From: Patescibacteria group bacterium
GTDB taxonomy: Bacteria; Patescibacteriota; UBA1384; DATEAH01
Assembly (NCBI GenBank): GCA_035288465.1
Contig: DATEAH010000009.1
Coordinates: 11,951-75,950 of the forward strand
Direction: 5' to 3'
Length of the DNA stretch: 64,000 bases
Shown here: one piece after another, positions 6,260 to 57,300 of the stretch
How positions within the stretch are numbered: the first letter of the stretch is position 1
How the letters are laid out: each line of letters begins with the position of its first letter
Program-made: the position numbers and the translations under genes
Notes under the pieces: generated by a model
The model's input: only the letters and a program-made list of their open reading frames with translations
The model's database searches: none
What the model was told of the DNA's origin: nothing

Positions 6260-6766
6260 TTAAAAAACCTTGCTTACAAACCAGCCGATCATGATGGCGG
6301 CTAAGGCAAATTTTAATATTGAGCCGAAAATAATTCCAAAAATTGCACCTACACCAGCCTTAACAGCTCCTTCAATTTTTTTATGGGAAAATATCATTTC
6401 AAAAAGAATTGTGCCTATAAATGCTCCGCCTATGATACCGACCAAGCCACCAATAAAAATCCCCACAATTGCTCCCACGATTGCGCCAAGAATGCCCATA
6501 AAATCTGCTTTGCCGCTTTTGGCACCTAAAATAGCTCCCAACCAATCAAATAATAAACCAAATAGGGTCAAAGCCAGAAAAATTATAATAAAAATTAAGT
6601 TTGTTTTTTCAAAACCAGTCCAAATCGAATATATGAGTGCGCCCAAAAAAACAAAAATTAAATCAGGCAATCCTGGCACCAAAATTCCCGCCAGTCCGAC
6701 CAGCATTACAATTAAAGCAACAATAAATGGCGCTAAATCGGTCATTTTTTTGATTCCTTTGGCCAT
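6260..6766 (-). CDS. small integral membrane protein (DUF456-like, Gly-zipper rich)
   Basis: Four hydrophobic helices with GxxxG repeats; overlaps rnc 3' end by 25 nt. Confidence 0.45.
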   Translation of the reverse strand: MAKGIKKMTDLAPFIVALIVMLVGLAGILVPGLPDLIFVFLGALIYSIWTGFEKTNLIFIIIFLALTLFGLLFDWLGAILGAKSGKADFMGILGAIVGAIVGIFIGGLVGIIGGAFIGTILFEMIFSHKKIEGAVKAGVGAIFGIIFGSILKFALAAIMIGWFVSKVF

Positions 6767-7440
6767 TTATCAATGGCATTTTGGGCAGCTTTTACTTGGG
6801 CTAATTGTTTAGATGATCCTTGTCCAAGACCTGCCTCTTTGTTGCCTAAAAATACGGTCATCGTGAAAATTTTCGCATGGTCGGGACCGGTTTCCTTCAA
6901 AACCTCATAGGTTGGCGTCACGCCCAATTCATCTTGGGCTTTTTCTTGTAACTGAGTCTTAGGGTCAATATAAATCTTTTTTTCAATAATTTCCGGCAAA
7001 TCGCTTAAAAGGTGTTTTTCGAGAAATTTTTTTACCTTTTCGTAGCCTTTTTCTAAATATAAAGCGCCGATTAACGCCTCAAAAGCATTCGCTAGCAATA
7101 AATCTTTTTCACGGCCACCCATTTTTTCTTCCCCGCGGGATAAATACAAAAATTTTCCCATCTCAAATTTTATGGCAACTTTAGACAGGCTTGGTCCGCA
7201 AACCAAAGCCGAACGCCAGCCAGTTAATTCGCCTTCGGGATTTTGATAATTTTTAAACATATTTTCCGTCACCACTAATTCCAAAACCGCATCACCTAAA
7301 AATTCGAGCCTTTCATTTGACTCTAAAGTTAATTTCGGATTTTCATTCAAGAAAGATCGGTGAATAAAAACATTTTTGAGCAAATTTTTATTATCAAATT
7401 TAATCTCAATTTTACTTTCAAATTCTTTTAAATCTCGCAT
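6742..7440 (-). CDS. rnc: ribonuclease III
   Basis: RNase III signature ERLEFLGDAVLELVV plus C-terminal dsRBD-like segment. Confidence 0.9.
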   Translation of the reverse strand: MRDLKEFESKIEIKFDNKNLLKNVFIHRSFLNENPKLTLESNERLEFLGDAVLELVVTENMFKNYQNPEGELTGWRSALVCGPSLSKVAIKFEMGKFLYLSRGEEKMGGREKDLLLANAFEALIGALYLEKGYEKVKKFLEKHLLSDLPEIIEKKIYIDPKTQLQEKAQDELGVTPTYEVLKETGPDHAKIFTMTVFLGNKEAGLGQGSSKQLAQVKAAQNAIDKWPKESKK

Positions 7441-7461
7441 TATGCTCCTTTAGGGTAAATC

Positions 7462-7598
7462 ATAATTTCTAAATTCTAAATCCTAAACAATATTAAAATT
7501 CAAAAGTCCAAATATCCCAAACATGTTTGAAATATTGTATTTTAGAAATTTGAATTTGTTTAGTATTTGGTGCTTAGGATTTCGGATTTCTTCAAAAG
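7462..7598. repeat. AT-rich palindromic dispersed repeat, copy 1 (arms ~CTAAATCCTAAACAA … TTGTTTAG..TAGGATTTCGGATTT); right arm supplies the last codons of the NUDIX gene
   Basis: Imperfect inverted arms around ~70 bp; same arm sequences recur at 20.65k, 42.55k, 52.35k and inside leuS. Confidence 0.5.
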
Positions 7599-8051
7599 CA
7601 AAATTGCTTTTGAAACGATTGGCTTTAAATCTTTATATTTAATTAATTTTTCAGCCTCAATTATTGGTAACCATTTCGCATCTCTAATTTCATGTTTTTG
7701 AATTTTTAAAGCATCTTGCGGATCAGCTTTAACTAAAAAATATTCCACAATTTTAAAAATTGGTTGACCCTTAAGTCGAAAAAAATATTTTGCTTTTCCA
7801 ATTTTTTCAATAATTTCTAATTTCACCAAACCGGTTTCTTCGGAAATTTCCCGTAAAGCCGCATGGGTCATTTTTTCTTTGATTTCCGGATGACCCTTTG
7901 GCAAGGCCCATTTTCCATAAGAATCCTTAATCACTAATATTTCAAATTTATTTTTTAAATCGTGGCTTTCAATTTTCCTATAAACCACCCCACCCGCGGA
8001 AATTTCAAATTTAGTCTTGGGTTTATTCAATTTTTTATTTTCACTCTGCAT
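7560..8051 (-). CDS. NUDIX hydrolase
   Basis: Nudix box GHPEIKEKMTHAALREISEETGL; start taken at MQSEN (track ORF starts further upstream at 8108). Confidence 0.8.
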   Translation of the reverse strand: MQSENKKLNKPKTKFEISAGGVVYRKIESHDLKNKFEILVIKDSYGKWALPKGHPEIKEKMTHAALREISEETGLVKLEIIEKIGKAKYFFRLKGQPIFKIVEYFLVKADPQDALKIQKHEIRDAKWLPIIEAEKLIKYKDLKPIVSKAILLLKKSEILSTKY

Positions 8052-8514
8052 TTTTACTTTTTGCTCTTTTATTTTCAAATTTATTATCATCTTCTTTGAC
8101 ATAAACATCTGAATGGCGATAAATTGTCCCTAAAACACCGTTCACAAATTTAGAACTATTTTCCCCTCCAAAATTTTTAGCAATTTCAACCGCTTCATCT
8201 ATGGCAACTTTTGGCGGCACGCGCTTATCTTTATCTTCGTACAAAAGCTCAAAAACTGCAATTCTCAGTACGTTTTTATCAACTCGAGCAATTTGTTCTA
8301 ACGGCCATTCTGGGGCGGAATCGGCAATTAATTTATCAATCTCCTTGGTATGTTTGATGACACCCGAAATCGTATTTTTTACAAAATCTTCATCCGTATT
8401 TGGTTTTTCGGTAAAATTTCGATTTAAAATTTCCGTCAATTTTGCCGATGGCCTAAGATCAAATTCGTATAAAGACTGCATTGCGCAAATACGAGATTGA
8501 TGACGATTTGCCAT
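8041..8514 (-). CDS. nusB: transcription antitermination factor NusB
   Basis: MANRHQSRICAMQSLYEFDL… NusB N-terminus and overall helical profile. Confidence 0.85.
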   Translation of the reverse strand: MANRHQSRICAMQSLYEFDLRPSAKLTEILNRNFTEKPNTDEDFVKNTISGVIKHTKEIDKLIADSAPEWPLEQIARVDKNVLRIAVFELLYEDKDKRVPPKVAIDEAVEIAKNFGGENSSKFVNGVLGTIYRHSDVYVKEDDNKFENKRAKSKNAE

Positions 8515-8586
8515 AATCGCTCCTTTTAGTCGCTAAAATTTAAGATTAAAAAGAAAAGATTATAAATTAAAATTAAAAATAACAGA

Positions 8587-8964
8587 TTATTTATTTTTTA
8601 AAGTTAAAATACTTTTACCTAAAATATTACTAAGCTGATTCGTCTCGTCAAGGAGTTTGTTCGTTTTATATATTTCTGATTTTTTTGAATCGCGAAGTAA
8701 GCATAACCAAAATTTAGTTTCATTTGCAGATTTTAAGGCATGGCTTAGGAAATTTTTAAAATCATTTCGAGAACTTGACGCTTGAGCCTCCACGATATTT
8801 GCACTAATTGACGTTGCAGAACGTAATAGTTGTTTGTTTATAATCTGTGTTGTTGTATTTTCAGGCGTACTTTCAATAAATTTAATAATATTCAACGCAA
8901 AGACATAAGCTCTTTCTTTGGCAACATTGTTATTCTGTCCAAATCTTTGATTTTTGCTTTGCAT
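8587..8964 (-). CDS. four-helix-bundle protein (23S rRNA intervening-sequence protein family)
   Basis: LRSATSISANIVEAQ…SRNDFKNFLSHALKSANETKFWL matches the TIGR02436-type pattern. Confidence 0.7.
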   Translation of the reverse strand: MQSKNQRFGQNNNVAKERAYVFALNIIKFIESTPENTTTQIINKQLLRSATSISANIVEAQASSSRNDFKNFLSHALKSANETKFWLCLLRDSKKSEIYKTNKLLDETNQLSNILGKSILTLKNK

Positions 8965-8974
8965 TTTTACTCTT

Positions 8975-9184
8975 TTATTTTTTATTTTTTATTTTTTTAG
9001 TCACTTTTGTGGCGGTTTCTAAAACTTCGCGTCCTTTATATGTTCCACAAACTTGGCAGACATGATGAGGTAGATGTTTGGTACGGCATTTTGGGCAAAT
9101 TGATAATTGAATTTTGGTTATTTTTTGTGATCCCTTGCGTTTTCGGTTTCGAGATCGAGATAGCTTTTGCTTTGGCTCTGGCAT
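8975..9184 (-). CDS. rpmF: 50S ribosomal protein L32
   Basis: KRKGSQ…CPKCRTKHLPHHVCQVCGTYKG zinc ribbon; GGAAGGAG RBS. Confidence 0.85.
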   Translation of the reverse strand: MPEPKQKLSRSRNRKRKGSQKITKIQLSICPKCRTKHLPHHVCQVCGTYKGREVLETATKVTKKIKNKK

Positions 9185-9396
9185 ATTCGCTCCTTCCCTT
9201 CCTAATTTATTTGGGTCAGTCGCTTAAAATAAAAGATTAAAGAGAAAAAATAAAAAATCCTGTTATAAATTTTTAATCTTTGCTCTGCATTTTTAATCTT
9301 TGATTTTTAATTTTTACTTTTATATTTTCTTATCTAAATTATATCCGAAAAATCGCCAAATTGCAATCCCATATACCTATTATATATATTAATAAA

Positions 9397-13939: not shown

Positions 13940-16780
13940 TTAGATCACAAAATTTATTAAACGGTTTGGGACCCAGATCGTTTTTTTTATTTTTTTATCA
14001 GCCAATAACGCCAAAATATTTTTAGATTTTTTCGCCAGTTCAATTATTTCTTTTTCCGAAATTCCATTGACCACTGTTAATTTATCTCGAACTTTGCCAT
14101 TAATTTGCACTACTACCAAAATATCTTTAAGTTTGACTAATTTCTCATTAAACTCAGGCCATTGTTCTTCGAAAATGGGATTTTTATGTCCTAATTTTTG
14201 CCATAACTCTTCAGCCAAATGCGGAAATATCGGTGCCATTAAAATCAGGATTTTTTCACCAGGCTTTTTTTCGTGATTAAAATATTCCATCATTGCCGAA
14301 ATTGCGGTATTTAATCGAAAATTTTCTAAATCTTCTGTCACTTTTTTAATCGCATGATGTAGCAGTGGTGTTTCATTTTGACCAAATTTTGTCCCCCAGA
14401 CTTTTTTCAAAAACCTAAAAATACCCAAGATGCCAGAATCCATCCATTCCGAATCCTCATCAGCCGGACCGATAAACATTTCATAGCCGCGTAAAGCATC
14501 GGTGCCATATTTTGCCACCAATTCATCTGGCGAAACAATATTGCCTTTGGATTTGGACATTTTTGCACCTTGATAATAAATCATGCCAATGTTAAATAAT
14601 TTGCGAAATGGTTCGCCATCTGGATCAAAATTAGTTAATTTGAAATCGTGTAAAAATTTACAAATAAATCTCGCGTATAATAAATGCATCGTGGCGTGTT
14701 CAATACCACCAATATATAAATCAACCGGCAACCAAAACTCGGTTTTTTCCTCATCAAAAGCTTTTTCAGAGTTTTTCGCATCCGCGTATCTTAAATAATA
14801 CCAAGATGAACAAACAAATGTATCTAAAGTATCGGTTTCTCGTACAGCTTCGCCGCCGCATTTTGGACATTTGGTTTCTAAAAATTCTTTATCGTGTTTT
14901 AATGGAGAACCGCCAGTCGGTTTAAATTCAATCTCTTTTGGCAACACCACTGGCAGCTCATTTTCAGGTACAGCCATCTCACCGCACTTATTGCAATATA
15001 TAATAGGTATAGGGGCACCCCAATAGCGCTGCCTCGAAACCAACCAGTCTCGTAAATGATAAGTGGTGGTTTTTTTAGCTTCGCCCTTTTTCGCCAACGA
15101 GCTTGTAATCTTAATTTTTGCTTCATTAGAATCCAAGCCATCAAATTCACCCGAATTTATCAAAATTCCCGTCTCCTCATAAGCCAAATTTTCATGATCA
15201 ATTCGGTCAAACCACAAATCTAATTCTGCACAAGTCATTCTGGCTGGAGTAATTTGCTCGCGAGATAACCATTCAATCTCGTGTTTTTCTTTTTCTTCCG
15301 CAGAAACTGGTACGCGCTCGTCATCAATCAATTCAAAATACAAAGCATTCGTCATCGCCTGCCGATTGACATTTTTGTGAGCGGCATAATATTCGGAAAA
15401 AACCAGACCGCCTAAAAATCGAGTGAATTTAACATTCACAAAACCGGTTTCTTCTTTAATTTCTCTTTTGGCTGCCCCTACTAAATCTTCGCCATCTTTT
15501 GCGCCGCCAACCACAAAAGCGATCCAGGGTTGTTTTTTCCAATTCAAACAGAGGTATTTTTTAGTTTTTGGATTGAAAACTATGGCATGGACTGAATTTC
15601 TTTTGGCAATTTCTTTTCCGTCTTTGGGTGGATTTTTAGAATCAATTCGATGGGGGATAATGACATCTTTTATCGGTAAATCGTATTTCTTAGCAAATTC
15701 AAAATCGCGCTGGTCATGAGCTGGCACACACATAATTGCACCTGTCGCATAATCTCGCAAAACATAATCCGCGACCCAAACCGGGATTTTCTCGCCATTT
15801 ACCGGATTAACCGCGTATGCACCCGTGAAAACGCCAGTTTTTTCACGAGTCGTAGAAGTTCTTGCTATTTCCGAATATTTTCCGGCCTTTTCCACGTATT
15901 CCGCCACCGTCTTTTTTTGTTTAGGAGTAGTAATTTTAGCCACCATTTCGTGTTCTGGGGCCAAAACTAAATAAGTGGCGCCAAATAAAGTGTCGGGTCT
16001 GGTGGTAAACACCTCAATAAAATGTTTCGAATTTAATATTTGAGATTTAGGATTTGTTTCGAATTTCGAATTTCGAATTTCGAATTTAATCGTTACTCCC
16101 TCAGAGCGTCCAATCCAATTTTTTTGCAAGATCTTAGTTCGTGCTGGCCAATCAATTTTTCCCAAATCCGCTAATAACCGATCGGCATATTTAGTAATCT
16201 TAAAAAACCATTGTTTTAAATCTTTTTTGACCACTTTTGAACCGCAACGTTCGCATTCACTTGCCACCACCTGTTCATTAGCCAAAACCGTGTGGCAAGA
16301 TGGACAAAAATTAACCAAGGCTTTTTTGCGATATGCCAAACCCTGTTTATATAATTGCAAAAATAACCACTGCGTCCAGCGATAATAATCAGGGCTTGAG
16401 GTATTAATTTCTCGTTCCCAATCATATAATGAACCAATTTGTGCCAATTGTTCTTTAAATTTAGAAATCGCAGTCTCAGTAAATTCCGCCGGATGAGAAT
16501 TTTTTTTAATCGCCGCATTTTCCGCCGGCAAGCCAAAAGCATCAAAGCCCATCGGATGCAAAATATTTTTACCTTTTAAAATTTGATAGCGCGTCCAAAT
16601 GTCAGACAAAACATAGCCTCGCCAATGCCCCACATGCAAACCTTCCCCAGATGGATAAGGGAACATATCCAAACAATAAAATTTGGGCTTTTTAGAAAAA
16701 TCCACGGCCTGATTTAAATTATTCTTGGCCCAAACTTTTTGCCACCTGGATTCAATTTTTTGAGGATTATAATCTGTCAT
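13940..16780 (-). CDS. leuS: leucine--tRNA ligase carrying an inserted NUDIX domain (aa ~375-535) and a repeat-derived low-complexity insertion (aa ~231-254)
   Basis: HIGH (LHVGH), KMSKS, CP1 editing AHDQRDFEFA; Nudix box GGAKDGEDLVGAAKREIKEETGF between IKDVI and GILINSGEFDGL. Confidence 0.9.
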   Translation of the reverse strand: MTDYNPQKIESRWQKVWAKNNLNQAVDFSKKPKFYCLDMFPYPSGEGLHVGHWRGYVLSDIWTRYQILKGKNILHPMGFDAFGLPAENAAIKKNSHPAEFTETAISKFKEQLAQIGSLYDWEREINTSSPDYYRWTQWLFLQLYKQGLAYRKKALVNFCPSCHTVLANEQVVASECERCGSKVVKKDLKQWFFKITKYADRLLADLGKIDWPARTKILQKNWIGRSEGVTIKFEIRNSKFETNPKSQILNSKHFIEVFTTRPDTLFGATYLVLAPEHEMVAKITTPKQKKTVAEYVEKAGKYSEIARTSTTREKTGVFTGAYAVNPVNGEKIPVWVADYVLRDYATGAIMCVPAHDQRDFEFAKKYDLPIKDVIIPHRIDSKNPPKDGKEIAKRNSVHAIVFNPKTKKYLCLNWKKQPWIAFVVGGAKDGEDLVGAAKREIKEETGFVNVKFTRFLGGLVFSEYYAAHKNVNRQAMTNALYFELIDDERVPVSAEEKEKHEIEWLSREQITPARMTCAELDLWFDRIDHENLAYEETGILINSGEFDGLDSNEAKIKITSSLAKKGEAKKTTTYHLRDWLVSRQRYWGAPIPIIYCNKCGEMAVPENELPVVLPKEIEFKPTGGSPLKHDKEFLETKCPKCGGEAVRETDTLDTFVCSSWYYLRYADAKNSEKAFDEEKTEFWLPVDLYIGGIEHATMHLLYARFICKFLHDFKLTNFDPDGEPFRKLFNIGMIYYQGAKMSKSKGNIVSPDELVAKYGTDALRGYEMFIGPADEDSEWMDSGILGIFRFLKKVWGTKFGQNETPLLHHAIKKVTEDLENFRLNTAISAMMEYFNHEKKPGEKILILMAPIFPHLAEELWQKLGHKNPIFEEQWPEFNEKLVKLKDILVVVQINGKVRDKLTVVNGISEKEIIELAKKSKNILALLADKKIKKTIWVPNRLINFVI
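16019..16090. repeat. intragenic in-frame copy of the palindromic repeat family inside leuS, including (TTCGAAT)x4 7-bp tandem repeat
   Basis: Sequence …GAGATTTAGGATTTGTTTCGAATTTCGAATTTCGAATTTCGAATTT… matches arms of intergenic copies; encodes FEIRNSKFETNPKSQILNSKH. Confidence 0.5.
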
Positions 16781-20458: not shown

Positions 20459-20551
20459 GATTCCATTTTATCAAATCATCAATTAAAACGCCCAGCGCTT
20501 TGGCTATTTTTGAATGTTGAATTTTCAAATTATAAAAAATAAAATAATTTT

Positions 20552-20625
20552 TGGACCCAGCCGGATTCGAACCGGCGGCCTCATGCATGCCATGCATGCG
20601 CTCTAGCCAGCTGAGCTATGGGCCC
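20552..20625 (-). tRNA. tRNA-Ala (anticodon GGC)
   Basis: Cloverleaf by hand: acceptor GGGCCCA/TGGGTCC with G3:U70, anticodon loop ATGGCAT, T-loop TTCGAAT; no encoded CCA. Confidence 0.9.
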
Positions 20626-20645
20626 AAATTTGTAAAAATCCTAAG

Positions 20646-20782
20646 CACGAAATCCTAAATCCTAAACAAACTCTAATGATCAAAATTTTAAATGTTTAAA
20701 ATCGGTTTTGAAAATTTGAATATTGGGATTTTGATATTGTTTAGAATTTAGATATTCGGATTTCGAATTTTCAACGAAGGTG
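20646..20782. repeat. AT-rich palindromic dispersed repeat, copy 2 (CGAAATCCTAAATCCTAAACAA … TTGTTTAGAATTTAGATATTCGGATTTCGAA)
   Basis: ~25-bp inverted arms around ~75 bp; right arm overlaps last codons of dgkA. Confidence 0.5.
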
Positions 20783-21133
20783 TGGCCAAAAAATAATAAT
20801 CCCTACCACCAGTGAAACGATAGACCACAATAAAACAAAACCGGCCATCATGTCTTTAATAATTTTAACGTCTAAATCATTTGAGGGATGAAAACGATCC
20901 AAGGTAAATTCGACTAAAGTGTTTAAGATTTCCGCCGCAATCGTTGATGTCACAAAAAGCAAAAGAATTAATTCCTTATTAAATTCCAATTGATAATACC
21001 AGGCTAAAAACATTACCAATATCCCGACTACCAGCATAATCCATAAATTTTGTTCAGTGACTAGCGATCGCCACAAACCAGACCAGGCGTAAAAAAAGCT
21101 TCCTTTAAATCTTTCCCAGCTTGAAAAAATCAT
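20771..21133 (-). CDS. dgkA: diacylglycerol kinase / undecaprenol kinase (DgkA family)
   Basis: 3-TM 120-aa protein; AAEILNTLVEFTLDRFHPSNDLDVKIIKDMMAGFV matches prokaryotic DAGK core. Confidence 0.65.
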   Translation of the reverse strand: MIFSSWERFKGSFFYAWSGLWRSLVTEQNLWIMLVVGILVMFLAWYYQLEFNKELILLLFVTSTIAAEILNTLVEFTLDRFHPSNDLDVKIIKDMMAGFVLLWSIVSLVVGIIIFWPHLR

Positions 21134-41692: not shown

Positions 41693-42418
41693 ATGGATAT
41701 TTTAGGAGTTAGAGTTCATAATCTTAGTTTTAATCAAGCTCTTGAGAAAATTGAGAGTTTTATCAAAAGTGGGCAAAAACATCAAATCGCCACCATAAAT
41801 GCAGAATTTATTATTGCCGCGCAAAAAGATTTAGAATTCAAGAAAATCTTGAATTCGGCTTCATTGGCAGTTCCAGATGGAACCGGCTTACTATTCGCTT
41901 CAAAATTTTTATATGGTGCAAAAAATGCTTTCAAAGAACGGGTGACTGGAGTTGATTTAACTTGGGAATTGGCAAAAATTGCTGAAAAAAATAATTGGTC
42001 AATATATCTTTTGGGCGCCAAAACTGGCGTGGCCCAAAAAACAGCTGTTAGATTAAAATATTTATATCATAATTTGAAAATTGTTGCTATTTCCGAAGGC
42101 ATGCCAAGATACACCGAGAAACAGGTGCTCGCCAACATTAATAAAGTCAAACCAGATATTTTATTAGTCGCTTTTGGTGCGCCCAAACAAGAAAAATTTA
42201 TCGCTAAAAATTTACCTAATTTAAATTTCAAAGTCGCCATTGGTGTCGGTGGGACATTTGATTTTATTGCCGAAACGCAAAAAAGAGCCCCGGTTTGGCT
42301 ACAAAAACTTGGTTTAGAGTGGTTGTGGCGACTAATTCATGAACCTAAAAGAATTGGTCGGATTTATAACGCGGTTATAAAATTCCCGTTCTTAGTTTTC
42401 TGGTCAAAAATCACTTGA
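41693..42418 (+). CDS. WecB/TagA/CpsF-family glycosyltransferase
   Basis: Family-typical ATINAEFIIAAQKD…LAVPDGTGLLFAS…YLLGAKTGV pattern. Confidence 0.75.
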   Translation: MDILGVRVHNLSFNQALEKIESFIKSGQKHQIATINAEFIIAAQKDLEFKKILNSASLAVPDGTGLLFASKFLYGAKNAFKERVTGVDLTWELAKIAEKNNWSIYLLGAKTGVAQKTAVRLKYLYHNLKIVAISEGMPRYTEKQVLANINKVKPDILLVAFGAPKQEKFIAKNLPNLNFKVAIGVGGTFDFIAETQKRAPVWLQKLGLEWLWRLIHEPKRIGRIYNAVIKFPFLVFWSKIT

Positions 42419-42532
42419 CAAAAAAATTAACCGGGCTTATAATAAAAATGATCTGGTGGCTTTTGGCCACCTCATTTTTTACCAAAATCCTTTGCTGAAA
42501 TTAATAATATTTGATATAATATATGTAAGGAA

Positions 42533-42658
42533 ATTCTAAATACTAAATCCGAAATCCTAAACAAATTCAAAATTCTAATTTCCCAATTTTCTAAACTATT
42601 TAGCAGATATAATTTGGGTCATTGAAATTTGTTTAGAGATTAGAAATTAGAATTTGAC
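42533..42658. repeat. AT-rich palindromic dispersed repeat, copy 3 (AAATCCGAAATCCTAAACAAATT … AAATTTGTTTAGAGATTAGAAATTAGAATTT)
   Basis: Same arm sequences as copies at 7.5k and 20.7k; fills tagA-nusA intergenic. Confidence 0.5.
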
Positions 42659-52137: not shown

Positions 52138-52340
52138 CTATATTATAACAGATTTGTCAAATTATTATAATTTAAAACAATGATTGTTCAAAAAAGTCAA
52201 TTCTTGACAAGATTTGTCATAGGATTATACTAAAAATAGATGTATAACATTGTGTATAACTTTTAATTTTGATAATTTAGTCGGCGAGTTTAAGGTTGCC
52301 CCTCCTTCTTAAACTCGCCCATAGAATTATCAAAGTAAAT

Positions 52341-52465
52341 CAAATCCGAAGCACTAAATCCGAAACAATTTCTAAATCACAAAATCGCAAATCATAAACG
52401 AGTTTAGAATTTGAAAAATTAGAATTTAAAATTTGTTTAGAAATTAGATATTAGAAATTATGATT
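52341..52465. repeat. AT-rich palindromic dispersed repeat, copy 4 (AAATCCGAAGCACTAAATCCGAAACAATTTCTAAATC … AAATTTGTTTAGAAATTAGATATTAGAAATT)
   Basis: Same arm family; immediately upstream of lexA. Confidence 0.5.
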
Positions 52466-52497
52466 TCTCCGTCAAAAGAGGGCAAAGGAGGTTTAAA

Positions 52498-53118
52498 ATG
52501 CCCAAAACCATTACTAAAAATCAAAAGAAAATTTTAGAACTAATTCGTTTGGCCCTCGAAGAGTATGGTGAAGCGCCGACCATCCGAGAATTAATGATGG
52601 AAATTGGCGCCAAATCGCCCAGAACCATTTCTCATCACATTGAGCAATTGGAAAAATCAGGTCTGATCAAAAGAACTGGCGAAGCGAAAAGAAATATTAT
52701 TCTCACCAAAAATGATCCCAAAAATCCTTTTCGAGATTTAGTGCGAGTGCCCTTGGTTGGTTGGACTGCTGGTGGGGAAGCGATTTTTTCTGAAGAAAAT
52801 ATTTTAGATTGGATTTCGATTTCCACGAGATTTTTTAAAGCCCCCTCAAACGATGTTTTTCTGCTCAAAGTACGAGGCAATTCAATGAGCCCAAAAATTG
52901 ATGATGGCGATATTGTGATTGTTAAAAAACAATATACCGCTGAGCCAGGTCAAACCATTGTCGCTCTTTTAGGTGCGGAAACGACCGTCAAAAAGTATTT
53001 ACCCCGCGAAGACCATATTGTTTTACAGCCAATCAATGAAAATTTTGAGCCAATTGTAGTTTTCCCCGATGAACTCAGAATTCAAGGCGTAATCCAAGGC
53101 GTGCTTAAATATTGTTGA
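52498..53118 (+). CDS. lexA: LexA repressor (S24 autopeptidase)
   Basis: N-terminal wHTH, catalytic GNSM Ser and VKK Lys, cleavage-region VGWTAGG; AAAGGAGG RBS. Confidence 0.8.
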   Translation: MPKTITKNQKKILELIRLALEEYGEAPTIRELMMEIGAKSPRTISHHIEQLEKSGLIKRTGEAKRNIILTKNDPKNPFRDLVRVPLVGWTAGGEAIFSEENILDWISISTRFFKAPSNDVFLLKVRGNSMSPKIDDGDIVIVKKQYTAEPGQTIVALLGAETTVKKYLPREDHIVLQPINENFEPIVVFPDELRIQGVIQGVLKYC

Positions 53119-53420: not shown

Positions 53421-54065
53421 GTGTTTCCATTATCATTTATCCTGCTATTAATCCTCGCTATCCCGTTCCTTTTTTTGGTGTTAAATTATCATATTTCTGA
53501 ATTAGCTTTTGTCAAATTGGGAATTCCCGCCAATCTTATTTTTGCCGTTTTTATCCTTTCATTACTGGGCGGTTTAATTAATATTCCGATTTCAAAACGA
53601 AAAATTACCCAAAAAGATGAATTACCACCCTTAATGTCAATGTTTTTTTATTATCCACCACGAATGAGAGAGCAAATCATTGCCATAAATGTCGGCGGCG
53701 CCATTGTCCCGATTTTAATTTCAATTTATTTATTCAAATTTGCCCCAATTGTGCCAGTCATAATTGCCACCACTATTATTACGATTTTAACCAAATTTTT
53801 AGCCAGGCCAGTTCCAGGAATTGGGATCGCCATGCCCGCGTTTATCCCGCCGATTGTGGCAGCGGTTTTAGCGATGTTGCTCGCCCATAATCAAAATCCG
53901 GCCGCCGTGGCCTATATCTCTGGAGTGATCGGAACCTTGGTGGGTGCAGATTTGCTAAACTTAAATAAAATTAGCAAAATGGGCGGCTATGTCCTTTCCA
54001 TTGGTGGCGCCGGTGTTTTTGATGGAATTTTCTTAATTGGCGTTATCGCCGCATTATTAGCTTAA
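53421..54065 (+). CDS. hypothetical polytopic membrane protein
   Basis: 214 aa, ~6 TM helices, Gly/Ala-rich helices. Confidence 0.4.
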   Translation: MFPLSFILLLILAIPFLFLVLNYHISELAFVKLGIPANLIFAVFILSLLGGLINIPISKRKITQKDELPPLMSMFFYYPPRMREQIIAINVGGAIVPILISIYLFKFAPIVPVIIATTIITILTKFLARPVPGIGIAMPAFIPPIVAAVLAMLLAHNQNPAAVAYISGVIGTLVGADLLNLNKISKMGGYVLSIGGAGVFDGIFLIGVIAALLA

Positions 54066-54090
54066 ATTAATAATTATATAAGGAGGTAGA

Positions 54091-54251
54091 TGAAAAAGAA
54101 ACAAATTGCGGGAGTTTTGGTTGTTTTGTCTGGATTAGCCATCATTTTAGCTTTCATTGGTTCACTAAATTATGATTTATGGTTAGCTTCAACTCAATGG
54201 TTGCTGATTGGTATTGCCTTGGCTGCTTACGGTATTTACGCCAAGTTATAA
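54091..54251 (+). CDS. small hypothetical membrane protein (53 aa, below ORF-track cutoff)
   Basis: AAGGAGG RBS 6 nt before ATG; two TM helices. Confidence 0.3.
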
Positions 54252-54328
54252 AGGCTGAGTTTATAATGTAGAATTTATCTGCTGAATTCCAATTATTTCA
54301 TGAATTAAAAAGAGAGGGAGGGGTTATA

Positions 54329-57300
54329 ATGCCCTTTGAGATTCAACCAAGTTTTATCTTGATAATTTTGGCATTTTTAGGTATTTTTGTTTTTTGGTAT
54401 CCAAAAACAAGAGTTCTAATTATAAAATATTCTAAATTATTTTGGAAAATTATCTTAATTTGTCTAAATAATCTTTCAAAATTGTATAAAATAATAAGTA
54501 TTTATTGGGAAAAATACATTTTTGTCTATTTCCGAACACGAGAAAAAGAGCAAATCCGTGGACTGACAAAAATTGCAATTATTCTCATTATTTTTTCCTT
54601 TATTCTCAATTCATTTGGCCTTGAACCCGACAGTCCCCAAAAAGCAGTCGCCGGCTATCAATGGACGCCTTCGGGGGGAAGTGTTATTACCGGGAGTGAA
54701 TATAATACCCAAGATGCAATTGCCAACACGCCTTCATATCGGGCATTAATGTCTAGCGATGATGTCCGCTGGCTGACAAAATATGATCCTGCCGCAGGTT
54801 TAGATAAACGGACCTATATTGATGGGGTTCAGCTTCAGGGCGCTAACAAAATGTTTATCACTTATGAAGGTTACGCCAGTGATGCCGCCGGAAATTATAC
54901 GGTTGAGATTTATGATAACACTGATTTTGTTTGGCGGACTTTAAATTGGCGCGGCACTGCTTTTACTAATACCAGTGACTCAACTTATACTTTTGAAATC
55001 TATAATGGTTTTTGGCAATCAGGCGGAAATCCGGTTAATACGCCCTTGTCTCGTTTTGTGACCGGAGATGCCAATAAGAGAGTCTCTATTCGAGTTTATT
55101 CGGCCGTAACTGGCGGCAGAATTCATTATTGGGACCGGCTGCAAGTTGAAGTTGGCATTGATCCGGTTTATTACACAAACTCTTTAACTAAATTAAATGG
55201 CTGGACAGGGGCAATTACCAATGATTATACCTGGACTAATTATGCCGATGACCAAAGAATGGTTGCCGCAAATCAAGCCGGAACGCCTTTGGATTTTTAT
55301 CTTTCATACACCGGAATCCAAACATACCCTAGCGCTAATACTATCTTTGTTGATTTTCAAGGCTCAGTTTCAAACGCGGCCCTAACTTATCAGCTTCAAA
55401 TTTATAATTTTACCGGTTTAAGCTGGGAAAATTTAAACACCACCCTGCTTGCCAATACTACTGAAACAAGTTATTATTTTGCTAAAAATAATGTCACACT
55501 TGCAGATTATATTTCTGCTAATGAAGCCAGAATTAGGATTTATACCGCTACTGGCAATACCTACACCTTAAGCGCAGACCGGGTTTATATCACTGTCGGC
55601 TCAACTAATACTGACCAAGGTTTGTGTCAGGTTTCTTTTGGCACAGAAGCTGGCGGGACAAATTGTTCAAATACTCGAACGATTGATACTTCAAGCGCCG
55701 AGAGTACTTGGCAGCAGACCACAGCGACTACCGCCGCCGCTGGTTATTACCCGGGAGATTACGCTGGAACCTGGGGAACTAATTATTCGGCGTCTGCTAA
55801 TCTTTCGGTGCCAATTACCATTCCAGACAGTACCGCGGTGACTGGGATTAAATACACGGCTAGATTTCGTTCAAATGTGACCACCAACACGATGATGCCA
55901 AGCCTAAAAGATATGTCTGGGATTAATACCTCTGTGGTCGGGACAGGCTATGCCGCACCCGGGGGTTGGGTTGATGTTTCAGCTTCAAATGCATTAACGA
56001 CTTATTCCACTTTAGAACCAGCCGCTTATACTCTTTCAACTTCATCAGAAGATTTTATTAATACTGAAAGCGATCTTGCGAATATACGCATGCGAACCTC
56101 AGCCAGCACTGCTACCGGAAGCGTAACGAGGGACTGGGATTTTGCTTTAATTGCGATTCGATGGCTTGCTGATGACACTGTCGCGGCCGATAATCCCCAA
56201 TATGTAGCCACATCTGGGTCTCTCCAAACCGGGACAGCGGTTGCAGTTGGCGCGACAAATACCGCATCATATTCCGGCACATTAAATTCTGAAAATTATT
56301 ACTGGCAAAACCAAAATTCAGCTTCTGGTTTGGATGTTCGGGTCAACATCGATGGTGTTAAACTCAACAATGCCAACAAAATGATTATTACTTATGAAGG
56401 CATGGTTTCAAACGCGGCTTTAGTATATTATGTGCAAATCTATGATAATACCAACTCTTTATGGCGAACCTTAAATGACCGAGGAGCAGCCCTCACCAGT
56501 ATTACGGAATCAAGCTATTATTTCTCGATCTTTAATGGTTTCTGGGGAGCAGACACTCCCTTATCAAACTTTATCACCAGTGATGCCAACAAACGGGTTC
56601 AACTAAGAATCTATTCTGAATATAAGGGTACTGCCTATACTCAATCTATAGACCGACTTCAACTTGAAGTAGCCACTGACCCAATTTACTGGGCTAAAGA
56701 CCAGACAGTTTTAGCGGGTGGAGATGGGGCAGTGACTAGTACCGGAACTAATGCCAGAGCCTTTGATATTACTAAAGATTCCTCTTATACGTATGCAGTA
56801 GGATATTGCGGAAATGATTGGTGCATAGAAAAAAGAAGAATTTCTGACGGAAGTTTAGTCAATGATTTTGGCAATAATGGTTTGGTTATTGGTACAATAT
56901 CGAGCAATAATGCGACTGCGCTTGCGATTGACGCAACTTATATGTATATTGTCGGGAATACTGGTGGATTTCCAAGTAATTTTTATTACGAAAAAAGAAA
57001 CCTTATTGATGGTAATCTAGATTTAGGTTTTGGGACTAACGGTGTTATTACCGGTGATCCCGATAGTAATATGGCTACAAGTATTGTCATTGATAATAGT
57101 AATATGTATGTGATTGGATACGACGATTCAAATAATTTACGCATTGAAAAAAGATCATTAACTAATGGCACATTAGATGCAGGTTTTGGTACCAATGGTG
57201 TGATCACTGGCGATCCATCAAGCAATATCGCTGAAGATATAGCCATAGATAATGAGTTTATGTATGTGGTAGGAGCTGATGACACTCCGGACTGGCGAAT

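Follow-up and report, generated by a model that had tools for sequence, protein, structure and literature searches.

The five repeats identified in the window (the whole stretch of 64,000 nucleotides that was analyzed) belong to a family of palindromic elements of ~136 bp that is common to many bacterial phyla. This family has apparently not been described so far, since it was found nowhere in the literature that we searched by sequence, peptide, and keyword. The sequence-only reading of this DNA had claimed five copies of an AT-rich palindromic repeat, and all of them are present, each within 10 nt or less of the position proposed. The copies, with ends refined by heptamer register and with E values obtained with the cross-phylum profile, are as follows.

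Copy A, full: 7457-7589, 133 bp, 22.6% GC, E = 6.4e-27; neighbors are rnc (6742-7440, minus strand) and a NUDIX gene (7560-8102, minus strand), according to Pfam on the flanks.
Copy B, full: 20636-20770, 135 bp, E = 4.2e-30; neighbors are tRNA-Ala (20551-20626, minus strand) and dgkA (20771-21133, minus strand).
Copy C, full: 42531-42655, 125 bp, E = 2.4e-21; in the nusA leader, ending 17 nt before the nusA start (42673).
Copy D, full: 52335-52466, 132 bp, E = 7.3e-21; in the spacer that separates a DUF7544 gene (51130-52122/52137, minus strand) from the divergently oriented lexA (52498-53118, plus strand).
Copy E, half (single A-rich arm): 16016-16087, minus strand; in leuS (13940-16780, minus strand).

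The copies have a GC content of 22 to 24% in a window of 38.8% GC and are rich in short repeats, as would be expected if AT-rich spacers of low complexity resembled each other by chance. We consider the probability of this explanation to be negligible, based on several lines of evidence. (i) The full copies share 70 to 74% pairwise identity in the best orientation (n = 4), as compared to 52.3 ± 2.2%, with a maximum of 61%, for 6,670 pairs of equally AT-rich 130-bp segments of the window; their identity thus exceeds that of random AT-rich pairs, the comparison on which the sequence-only reading had staked its claim. (ii) The identity of the full copies to their own reverse complement is 64 to 74%, with a null mean of 51%. 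(iii) The pattern AAATCCKAAACAA-N55-80-TTGTTTMGNNNTT matches all four full copies, and no match is expected from shuffled sequences. (iv) A profile constructed from other genomes, free of window sequences, matches the window copies with E values from 1e-13 to 1e-30. The half copy in leuS was detected by this profile built solely from other genomes (E = 1.9e-13) and, when left out of training, by a window-only profile (E = 7e-8). (v) A 7-nt register is exact in nine of the nine window arms. A repeat search of the window recovered the copies as dispersed families plus inverted pairs, and no further copy was found in the 8.3 kb upstream of the window on the same contig.

A genome scan with the profile retrieved the element from at least 15 phyla among at least 120 loci, in hosts with a GC content of 31 to 67%; both the range of taxa and the numbers of copies are thus minimum values, obtained under an unknown sampling order. 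Carriers include Patescibacteria, Omnitrophota, Planctomycetota, Verrucomicrobiota, Desulfobacterota, Chloroflexota, Nitrospirota, Gammaproteobacteria, and a group of related phages, and some of the profile matches are located on long contigs (0.9 to 2.6 Mb). Only 22 contigs of IMG/VR carry the element, many of which are the related phages, and BLAST searches of PLSDB and INPHARED yielded no match, so that no plasmid or cultured-phage vector was found in these databases. At the gathering threshold, Rfam 15 families matched only tRNAs and a glycine riboswitch in the window and 18 loci, and a search by E value returned only miRNA-hairpin matches far below the threshold. Copies within a genome are up to 87 to 94% identical, and the mean identity between genomes is 67.6 ± 4.6%. 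The window copies show a similarity of 0.70 to 0.71 among themselves and of up to 0.80 to copies in other phyla. They are thus no closer to each other than to those of other phyla, which excludes a recent burst; they may have been acquired independently or driven by selection toward a shared consensus. The GC content of the element follows that of the host (r = 0.69), indicating long residence, and the ~70% mutual identity suggests that the copies in this genome are old.

The family has a well-defined anatomy. Both arms consist of arrayed 7-bp units and lie in inverted orientation on either side of a center that varies. The outer part of an arm consists of four units of the form AA-nnn-C-(G/T), in which the triplets nnn are drawn from a small alphabet (ATC > ATT > GCA > TAT > ACT); an invariant AAACAA box and then about four looser CAAA-type units follow inward. 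One arm reads AAATCCGAAGCACGAATATCGAAATCCGAAACAA. The termini are exactly 5'-AAAT...ATTT-3', and the ends are sharp, with the information content of both arms dropping to zero at a distance of exactly 21 nt outward from the AAATCCKAAACAA box. Terminal inverted repeats are present, given that the same 34-nt profile ending in AAACAA is found in both arms. The median length is 136 bp, with an interquartile range of 132 to 143 bp (164 complete copies from the fetched loci), and the GC content is 22 to 38%. In the heptamer register, both arms of copy A comprise four units followed by AAACAA; the right arm of copy C contains three outer units, the outermost left unit of copy D is degenerate, and copy E reads (AAATTCG)x4, AAACAA, and then inner units. 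Stop codons in all six frames are present in 50 of the 55 copies of the CTAA flavor and in all four full window copies. A six-frame stop cassette was nevertheless rejected as the defining function, since stops are expected at 23% GC and since the CGAA flavor, which is the commoner one, is mostly open.

Our best reading of the comparisons between copies is that the arms are constrained by sequence and not by pairing. The agreement of an arm with its own partner is 62.1%, and that with the partner arms of other copies is 62.6%; the variable triplets of mirrored units agree less often than expected by chance. RNAalifold retained only an 8-bp box, CKAAACAA/TTGTTTMG, with a consensus energy of -4.5 kcal/mol. 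Orthologous copies in phages are 85 to 93% identical, as compared to 62 to 90% for their flanks, and chromosomal orthologues have nearly identical arms around a diverged center. Arms at orthologous sites hence evolve as slowly as, or slower than, neighboring coding DNA, and the purifying selection on these copies points at least as much to a function for host or phage as to selfish persistence.

These data also bear on the idea that the element acts as a structured RNA, with a long hairpin in the transcript that would be cleaved by RNase III, stabilize the mRNA or mark it for decay, or separate neighboring cistrons; the palindrome in the DNA would then serve solely to encode this hairpin. Individual copies do form long imperfect hairpins (the folding energies of the window copies range from -17 to -29 kcal/mol and their z-scores from -1.7 to -3.8, and the family mean is -39 kcal/mol); they are found in transcribed spacers and leaders and, in rRNA, at the tips of hairpin loops, and other hairpins occupy the same spacers in related phages. 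However, covariation is absent, mirrored units tend to differ in their triplet, no Rfam family matches, and the half copies inside proteins cannot form the hairpin. Nor is one strand favored, since the sense strand is more stable in 47 copies and the antisense strand in 42 (p = 0.59). We therefore regard a structured RNA as unlikely.

Family copies are located close to genes, at a median distance of 8 nt after the stop codon and 19 nt before the start codon. Copy B lies 10 nt upstream of the 5' end of tRNA-Ala, and four other family members are 8 to 12 nt from tRNA genes. The notion that copies fill whole spacers applies to copies A (119 nt) and B (144 nt) but not to copies C and D, which occupy about half of 254 nt and about one third of 360 nt, respectively. 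Similarly, of the two genes proposed to derive their last codons from a copy, the NUDIX gene indeed ends inside copy A, which overlaps its last ~10 codons and the stop codon (tail ...KKSEILSTKY*), whereas copy B contributes no codons to dgkA, the stop codon of which directly adjoins the element. Because the full window copies carry stops in all six frames, insertion at the end of a gene would re-terminate it, as seen for the NUDIX gene.

Shared promoter or intrinsic-terminator modules, which the sequence-only reading had also considered, are supported by the location of copies upstream of rnc, tRNA-Ala, nusA, and lexA and by a few weak sigma-70-like matches (9/12) inside copies A, B, and D. 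On balance, this suggestion is not supported. No terminator-like site (a GC-rich stem followed by a T-run) was found in the four full window copies, and the stronger signals are outside of the elements: upstream of copy C there are a promoter with a 12/12 consensus match (42415-42443) and a terminator-like hairpin (42455-42471), and a promoter-like site (52204-52231, 11/12) is situated upstream of copy D. Furthermore, gene orientation at 135 sites (16% convergent, 12% divergent, and 72% tandem) matches the background (14, 15, and 71%, respectively), and the family also occurs in hosts of 60 to 67% GC, in rRNA, and in ORFs. We thus consider such modules very improbable. An anti-Shine-Dalgarno motif, CTCCGAAGGAG, noted beside copy C and copies at phage loci was discarded, as four of the five cases detected correspond to one phage; Shine-Dalgarno-like motifs near copies are not enriched (11.7% versus 10.2%).

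Copies are also found within RNA genes and proteins. A Saccharibacteria locus (L037) contains four copies in a single 23S rRNA gene, three of which are shown to be at hairpin loops. Inserts of 179 and 211 nt replace 23S loops of 8 and 6 nt, the insertions are near model positions ~165, ~283, and ~583, and these rRNA copies possess extra flanking stems. The positions presumably resemble the classical sites of intervening sequences that RNase III excises without religation. Insertion at helix tips is hence a property of the family and not of the window copies, none of which is in rRNA. A general insertion into preexisting hairpin loops was rejected, as the complementarity of the flanks equals the null except for the rRNA copies and one other.

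In proteins, the elements are half copies with a single A-rich arm only. Copy E is read in frame in leuS as KFEIRNSKFETNPKSQILNSKH, and the corresponding loop before the CP1 editing domain of LeuS exceeds that of 17 of the 19 aligned homologues by 13 residues. A LeuS of Uhrbacteria and an EpmA/GenX-like protein (aminoacyl-tRNA synthetase-like) contain independent half copies in the same reading frame, so that LeuS has acquired K/N/S-rich loops from half copies in two lineages. Full-length copies inside ORFs of GC-rich genomes were dismissed, since in most cases the Pfam domains begin downstream of the element, indicating that these ORFs are spurious N-terminal extensions; one copy (L099), in a MacB/FtsX-like protein, may be a real full-length in-ORF copy. 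A peptide search in a set of 5.8 billion proteins retrieved only nine small hypothetical proteins and was uninformative.

The explanation that we consider best, in which we place about as much trust as doubt, is that the repeat is an RPE/MITE-like foldback insertion element, discrete and non-coding, with arms constrained in sequence. The proposal that the repeats are mobile or recombinogenic is borne out by their behavior: they are discrete, sharp-ended, dispersed units, are near-identical within some genomes (up to 94%), are inserted in 23S rRNA and in frame in proteins, and are absent around leuS in relatives, as the two nearest relatives contain no copy in 46 kb around this gene. In these same two relatives, nusB and rnc overlap. 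What is not supported is the assignment to classical MITEs, given that neither a target-site duplication nor a target motif was detected, and that no autonomous partner or transposase was detected nearby. The check for target-site duplications that had been suggested was carried out on 117 copies (k = 2 to 8, all offsets within ±3) and showed no excess at k ≥ 4; at k = 4, at most three flank matches were observed as compared to 0.46 expected, and at k ≥ 5 there were zero to one. Outside the element ends, the information content is zero and there is thus no target motif. Among 148 loci, there was no pair of arms with an ORF for an enzyme between them; the sole distant pair of a left and a right arm (L136, 1.7 kb apart), considered as a candidate autonomous version, encloses phage structural genes. 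The 150 flanking ORFs matched 180 different Pfam families, mostly housekeeping and none with more than two members; there is no transposase among the 25 families listed for these ORFs and no RAYT/IS200-type gene among the families listed for flanking ORFs (8 to 23 kb per genome).

Against this explanation, no transposition event, clean empty site, or mobilizing enzyme was found, and the lack of both target duplication and target motif is not in line with any well-characterized bacterial transposition chemistry. We count in favor of it that the copies appear to be fixed in the source population: no presence/absence polymorphism was detected, copy D recurs with the same profile score in six contigs that originate from different samples, and all variants keep the copies, including copy E in leuS.

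A comparison with known systems shows partial similarities. Rickettsia palindromic elements (RPE, families RPE1 to RPE10) are non-coding dispersed palindromes of 100 to 150 bp that occur in spacers, in RNA genes, and in frame in proteins, to which they add peptides at the surface. To our knowledge, they cause no target duplication, have no known transposase or mechanism, and are confined to Rickettsia. They are reportedly the subject of a study by Ogata et al. from 2000. The family resembles RPE as a dispersed non-coding palindrome without target duplication that is present in spacers, RNA genes, and in-frame peptides, the latter two traits being documented by both LeuS proteins, the EpmA/GenX-like protein, and the L037 23S rRNA. 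It differs in its presence in many phyla, in its phased 7-bp units, and in that proteins contain single arms only. The label RPE-like is hence appropriate for the behavior but not as membership in the Rickettsia family, since the peptides of the element have no match in NCBIfam release 20 or Pfam at E values up to 1, a test at the peptide level only that presumes that RPE domain models are part of these libraries. Bacterial MITEs such as Correia/NEMIS, RUP, and ERIC/IRU generate target-site duplications (TA in the case of Correia) and have IS-related arms; Correia hairpins are RNase III substrates, and no MITE family is known to extend beyond a genus or family. Like MITEs, which measure 50 to 500 bp and are transcribed along with the adjoining genes, the element is small, non-coding, intergenic, probably co-transcribed, and hairpin folding, with inverted terminal arms, a similar size, and multiple dispersed copies (4 full copies in 64 kb and 164 complete copies overall). 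Unlike MITEs, it has no target duplication, no IS relation was found in the loci covered, and its arms are not kept complementary. Drosophila foldback (FB) transposons are kilobase sized, with variable numbers of units and target duplications, and share with the element, by analogy of architecture and not by homology, the long inverted arms composed of short tandem units.

REP/REPIN elements, which are associated with RAYT transposases of the IS200/IS605-like Y1 type, are intergenic inverted doublets that form hairpins without target duplication (PMC3116915, PMC3733652). REPs are GC-rich palindromes of 20 to 40 bp with GTAG or CGTC heads and maintained hairpins (PMC3116915, PMC3733652). The family is likewise inverted, intergenic, non-autonomous, free of target duplication, and of long vertical persistence; in contrast, it is AT rich with AAAT...ATTT termini and shows neither a GTAG/CGTC head nor covariation. 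Finally, uncharacterized ORF-less insertions of less than 200 bp have been described in rRNA genes of CPR bacteria, in an article that mentions neither a repeat family, nor a heptamer build, nor an occurrence outside rRNA (PMC11270868). Three of the L037 copies resemble 23S intervening sequences in their position at the tips of hairpin loops, but, as opposed to classical rRNA-specific intervening sequences, the family is also present in spacers, phage genomes, and proteins across phyla.

As to the mechanism, the arms may be arrays of sequence-specific recognition units for a protein acting in trans. Recognition by such a protein would account for the conservation across phyla of sequence rather than pairing. 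The protein could be a moving enzyme that leaves no target duplication, and that would thus differ from classical DDE cut-and-paste enzymes, or a host factor. The copies are probably transcribed together with their neighbors, namely, in the NUDIX-rnc spacer and in the tRNA-Ala, nusA, and lexA leaders, and the transcripts would fold into imperfect AU-rich hairpins of ~55 to 65 bp that are tolerated. RNase III, encoded by the gene adjoining copy A, may trim these hairpins in the way it processes intervening sequences of rRNA. An A-rich arm inserted in frame would give rise to a hydrophilic loop of K/N/S/E/I/R/P, as in LeuS.

Conservation of the arms can also be read in another way, in that the inverted heptad arrays form a cis-acting module of host or phage, a platform for a conserved nucleic-acid-binding protein that would spread horizontally because it is useful in nucleoid organization, gene regulation, or operon punctuation. 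An analogy is provided by the omega repressor/centromere protein of inc18 plasmids, which binds contiguous 7-bp heptads. We know of no agreement in spacing or sequence with CIRCE, CtsR, LexA operators, parS, integron attC, or the tRNA T-arm, and take any resemblance to be coincidental. In favor of this module are the conservation of arm sequence across phyla without maintained complementarity, the orthologous phage copies that are more conserved than the flanking genes, the chromosomal orthologues with near-identical arms and diverged loops, the star-like similarity in which window copies are equally close to other phyla, and the fact that the same spacers of related phages always hold some palindrome ("hairpin slots"). 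However, copies show no preference for a gene, gene family, or orientation, a platform for DNA binding does not easily account for those inside rRNA helices and proteins, the nearest relatives contain no copies at the same loci, and we know of no candidate protein, nor is one encoded nearby. We consider this module rather doubtful.

The same phage spacers provide a further observation: the spacer that holds the element in L135 holds other palindromes in L130, L132, L144, and L148, and heptamer-periodic palindromes of a CAGTAGC type and an AAAAGTT/TTTTTAC type were noted among them. We tentatively propose, as a possibility that goes beyond the foldback insertion element itself, that the family typifies a class of prokaryotic foldback DNA not described so far. 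This class would comprise palindromes composed of phased 7-bp recognition units, would be present in most bacterial phyla and in their phages, would move or be exchanged without target duplication, and would be under purifying selection owing to a conserved protein that reads the heptad arrays. Under this tentative proposal, the CAGTAGC-type and AAAAGTT/TTTTTAC-type palindromes might be sister families, and the family might be the source of many ORF-less short intervening sequences in CPR rRNA and of lineage-specific loops of essential enzymes.

Small palindromic repeats such as REP, Correia, and RPE are normally lineage specific. The ends, unit phase, and core box of this family are recognizable from Patescibacteria to Planctomycetota and phages, in hosts of 31 to 67% GC, a breadth that implies the existence of a horizontal vector of very wide reach or else of a reader protein that is conserved; we know of neither. 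The family links the short ORF-less insertions in CPR rRNA with loops in LeuS and other essential proteins that are lineage specific and unexplained, and also with the many tiny "hypothetical proteins" that are called from metagenomes and are rich in FRISDF or KSEIRN. Its profile would be of use to clean annotation, for example, by flagging spurious N-terminal extensions in GC-rich genomes, and as a marker to follow how insertions are gained and lost in uncultured lineages. One of the carriers, Wenzhouxiangella sp. 15190 (locus L081), is an isolate, which makes the mechanism experimentally testable.

Direct reading of the window sequence confirmed all five copies of the AT-rich palindromic repeat, with the arms claimed for them, at the places given in the sequence-only reading. 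Refined in a 7-nt register, these copies are the following:

Copy A, 7457-7589, full element
Copy B, 20636-20770, full element
Copy C, 42531-42655, full element
Copy D, 52335-52466, full element
Copy E, 16016-16087, half copy (one arm) inside leuS

In a repeat search of the window, the five places were linked as direct repeat families D9, D15, and D16 and as inverted pairs I1-I3. The pairwise identity of the four full copies (70-74%, better of two orientations) exceeded that of random AT-rich pairs, as had been anticipated; the latter amounted to 52.3±2.2% (maximum, 61%) for 6670 pairs of 130-bp window segments with ≤30% GC. A chance likeness of AT-rich spacers was rejected. The self reverse-complement identity of the full copies is 64-74%, compared to a null mean of 51%. 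The pattern AAATCCKAAACAA-N55-80-TTGTTTMGNNNTT matched the window exactly four times, at copies A to D, with 0 matches expected from shuffles, and copy E was detected by the window profile with E=7e-8, although not among its training sequences. All nine window arms read, in 7-nt register, (AA nnn C K)x3-4, where K is G or T and nnn a variable triplet, followed by AAACAA and looser units.

The window copies are members of a cross-phylum family, since they are matched by a profile built from 117 extracted copies with the window sequences left out (E=6e-27, 4e-30, 2e-21, and 7e-21 for copies A to D, respectively, and 2e-13 for the leuS half copy). Scanning a species-representative genome collection with the same pattern retrieved at least 120 loci, and both the taxonomic range and the copy numbers are thus minimum values. 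The matches listed include (i) Patescibacteria, among them Saccharibacteria, Parcubacteria, WWE3, Doudnabacteria, and Jorgensenbacteria; (ii) Omnitrophota; (iii) Planctomycetota, among them Phycisphaerae, Pirellulales, and Gemmataceae; (iv) Verrucomicrobiota, Kiritimatiellia, and Lentisphaerae; (v) Desulfobacterota, Syntrophaceae, and Chloroflexota, including Dehalococcoidia; (vi) Nitrospirota, Elusimicrobiota, WOR-3, Binatia, and one actinomycete; and (vii) Gammaproteobacteria, including the isolate Wenzhouxiangella sp. 15190. Mis-binning as the cause of this range was ruled out, since several matches are on contigs of 0.9-2.6 Mb. Among the matches listed, host loci have 31-67% GC, and the extracted copies are alike far past the bases imposed by the pattern. 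There was no match in PLSDB plasmids or INPHARED phages; 22 IMG/VR contigs contain the element.

In a conservation profile anchored at the AAATCCKAAACAA box, conservation starts sharply, exactly 21 nt outside the box in both arms, and the information content farther out is zero. This defines the element as a discrete unit (termini, 5'-AAAT...ATTT-3') whose median length is 136 bp (interquartile range, 132-143 bp; 164 complete copies). The outer unit is AA-nnn-C-K, in which both A positions and the C position show 88-96% conservation, and the triplet alphabet is small (ATC 338, ATT 176, GCA 97, TAT 68, and ACT 52). K is mostly uniform within a copy, resulting in CGAA and CTAA flavours, and a CCAA flavour was observed in an Uhrbacteria genome. 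A few copies (in loci L058, L098, and L107 and copy 2 of L037) carry an extra central insert, some of which are visibly GC-rich hairpins. The GC content of the element follows that of the host (r=0.69; 27% in AT-rich and 38% in GC-rich hosts), which suggests a long residence of the copies in their hosts.

The placement of the copies was analyzed with genes of the fetched loci called simply as longest ORFs. Flanking-gene orientation corresponds to the background (tandem, 72% vs 71%; convergent, 16% vs 14%; divergent, 12% vs 15%), and packing is tight, with medians of 8 nt past the upstream stop codon and 19 nt ahead of the downstream start codon. The 150 flanking ORFs match 180 different Pfam families, mostly housekeeping and with ≤2 members each; no transposase was among the 25 families listed. 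Five copies adjoin tRNA genes at a distance of 8-12 nt. The locus L037 (Saccharibacteria CAZUCU010000009.1, 3425-6545) contains four copies inside a single 23S rRNA gene and a fifth just upstream. According to the Rfam alignment, 179 nt replace an 8-nt loop and 211 nt a 6-nt loop, and a third insert is near model position 583; we estimate that the first and third positions match classical sites of RNase III-excised intervening sequences. The in-gene copies are each bracketed by short, GC-richer, pairable stems that are similar among copies, which suggests that copy and stems were duplicated in this gene as one composite unit, with identities of up to 94%. Numerous uncharacterised, ORF-less insertions of <200 bp were reported at such sites by a 2024 survey of CPR rRNA genes, in which the element family is not described (PMC11270868).

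Discrete ends and the copies within rRNA and proteins are evidence for insertion. In the two nearest relatives, the 46 kb around leuS contain no element copy; in their loci examined (L149, L150, and L152) the genes are arranged as leuS-L32-nusB-rnc and the last two overlap, whereas the window genome has a NUDIX gene and copy A between nusB and rnc. Evidence for insertion also comes from related phages, one spacer of which carries the element in L135 and other palindromes or GC hairpins in L130, L132, L144, and L148. Within genomes, copies are up to 87-94% identical, compared to 67.6±4.6% between genomes. Of the earlier proposal of a mobile or recombinogenic element, insertional origin and proliferation within genomes were retained. 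The target duplication of a MITE, for which a search had been proposed, was absent for k=2-8 at any offset, and flank complementarity was in general not observed. The best-supported reading is that of a non-autonomous foldback element of insertional origin, the arms of which are conserved as sequence.

A purely RNA-structural reading is a rival, since individual window copies fold imperfectly into hairpins (z-scores, -1.7 to -3.8). However, the two arms of a copy are not conserved as complements: identity to the own partner arm is no higher than that to partner arms from other copies (62.1% vs 62.6%), and the same triplet occurs in mirrored units more rarely than expected by chance. RNAalifold retained for 60 copies only the 8-bp box CKAAACAA/TTGTTTMG, where only the K position changes on both sides, from G-C to U-A. 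Sense and antisense strands fold equally well (sense more stable in 47 copies, antisense in 42). The constraint on the element is not on base pairing. The second rival, a purely functional binding platform, is favored by the similarity among the window copies (0.70-0.71), which does not exceed that to copies of other phyla (up to 0.80). It is also consistent with the conservation of orthologous copies: four phage copies are 85-93% identical, compared to 62-90% for adjacent coding DNA, and in two chromosomal pairs the arms are nearly identical and the centre has diverged. For the preferred foldback element of insertional origin, the heptad arrays would be recognition units of a putative trans-acting protein, either an enzyme that moves the element without target duplication or a host or phage factor.

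Among known elements, Rickettsia RPEs are closest in behaviour, being palindromic and located in spacers, RNA genes, and proteins. As with the element, neither target duplications nor an enzyme are known for RPEs. Membership in the RPE families was rejected at the peptide level because the element peptides match no NCBIfam or Pfam model, on the assumption that these libraries include RPE domains. The element differs from MITEs in lacking target duplications and from REP/REPIN sequences in lacking their GC-richness and tagged head, and resembles a 23S rRNA intervening sequence when in rRNA. No Rfam family matches it, and literature searches by sequence strings, peptides, and keywords, with a coverage that excludes most subscription journals, retrieved no earlier description. 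We consider it a new small palindromic repeat, for which a prior description is possible given this coverage. Its cross-phylum range, phased 7-bp build, absence of target duplication, and sequence constraint without covariation are unusual for such repeats.

The gene names assigned earlier around the window copies (rnc, NUDIX, dgkA, WecG/TagA, nusA, DUF7544 membrane protein, lexA, and leuS) were supported by Pfam, and the tRNA-Ala beside copy B by ARAGORN. The copies had been proposed to fill whole spacers, which holds for A and B, in intercistronic or pre-tRNA spacers, but C and D occupy only part of spacers of 254 and 360 nt, respectively, where they follow a predicted promoter and precede the start codon. 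Similarly, a contribution to gene ends was found for the NUDIX gene, whose last codons are overlapped by copy A (tail ...KKSEILSTKY*), but not for dgkA; copy B, located 10 nt upstream of tRNA-Ala, touches the dgkA stop codon but contributes no codon. The following sites were predicted near copies C and D:

42415-42443, perfect sigma-70-type promoter (TTGACA-17-TATAAT), outside copy C, overlapping the WecG/TagA gene end
42455-42471, terminator-like hairpin (GGTGGCTTTTGGCCACC and T-run), directly after this promoter, upstream of copy C and nusA
52204-52231, promoter-like site (11 of 12), outside copy D

Since the predicted promoters and the hairpin are all outside the copies and no window copy contains a terminator-like site, the suggested role as shared promoter/terminator modules was rejected. 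The first promoter and the hairpin may form an attenuator arrangement. A separate 32-nt inverted repeat (52263-52339; 81% complementary, 13-nt loop) directly adjoins copy D in the lexA upstream region.

The window copies are fixed in the source population: copy D has identical profile scores in six contigs from different samples, three contigs contain copy A, and the element-derived residues are kept in every variant of the LeuS and NUDIX 90%-identity clusters. Proteins identical to those of the window, which is from an uncultured Patescibacteria genome, are encoded by metagenome contigs that reach 117 kb; the nearest LeuS is from Berkelbacteria (58% identity). We interpret the window copies as old, fixed, and probably co-transcribed, with a role of at most RNA punctuation, possibly as RNase III substrates; that rnc adjoins copy A is taken to be a coincidence. 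In locus L004 (1084-1600), from a variant strain of the window genome, no DUF2905 gene separates lexA from the DUF1614 gene, and the DUF1614 product is shorter (143 vs 214 aa). A giant gene (~54000-64000) runs off the window end; on the full contig, its product has 3826 aa. The gene contains numerous 156-nt tandem repeats (52 residues each) as well as larger repeat units of ~2.6 kb, and no Pfam domain is recorded for it.

At the half copy, the window LeuS reads ...GVTIKFEIRNSKFETNPKSQILNSKHFIEVFTTRPDT..., in a loop that is 13 residues shorter in 17 of 19 aligned homologues. A parallel insert, KFQITNPKSQTNSKSQIPNSKLE, is present in a distant LeuS from Uhrbacteria (48% identical); the DNA of this insert matches one profile arm (E=2e-7), and a second half copy at the same locus is in frame in an EpmA/GenX-like protein (GKFQIPNSKFQTNPKSELSNH). 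All three correspond to the A-rich arm in the same frame and encode hydrophilic peptides. The T-rich arm would encode hydrophobic FRISDFGF-type peptides, a probable reason for the survival of half copies only in proteins. Several frames are open in the CGAA flavour; full copies inside ORFs of GC-rich genomes were mostly dismissed as spurious N-terminal extensions, with Pfam domains starting downstream of the element.

Other features of these genes were also observed. The window LeuS (13940-16780, minus strand) contains, right after the CP1 editing domain, a complete inserted NUDIX domain (residues 393-513; Pfam E=6.5e-14), whose Nudix box, GGAKDGEDLVGAAKREIKEETGF, is perfect. Protein searches found PF00293 also in many CPR LeuS homologues, some with alpha/beta-hydrolase domains too, and LeuS-NUDIX is therefore a lineage-wide fusion. 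In the cluster of the window LeuS (P0140 and P0141), leuS of ENA contig k141_3086140 was called as two ORFs (275 and 668 aa), split after ...LVLAP, away from the element, which could be due to misassembly or to a genuine frameshift or stop codon in this sample. The window operon at 6742-9300 is remodelled, with a 23S_rRNA_IVP (PF05635) gene (8587-8964) between L32 and nusB. This gene and the NUDIX gene have a common ~55-nt 5' leader, including the start MQS(E/K)N, as if both had been inserted as cassettes.

In related phages, the spacer that carries the element in L135 (3187-3322) contains a heptamer-periodic palindrome of CAGTAGC units in L130 (~1700), L132 (~1800), and L144 (~3870) and GC-rich hairpins in L148. 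Such spacers between phage structural genes resemble fixed "hairpin slots" in which palindromes can be exchanged. The window has a second AT-rich repeat family (D12, D17, and I5) at 8022-8082, 8546-8589, 8935-8995, and 9222-9342; its arms are A-rich and T-rich, with a periodicity of ~7 nt (TTTTTAC/TCTTTGA/TTTGCAT). This family lies around the small genes for NUDIX, the 23S_rRNA_IVP-family protein, and L32 and resembles the alternative palindrome present in place of the main element at phage loci L132 and L141.
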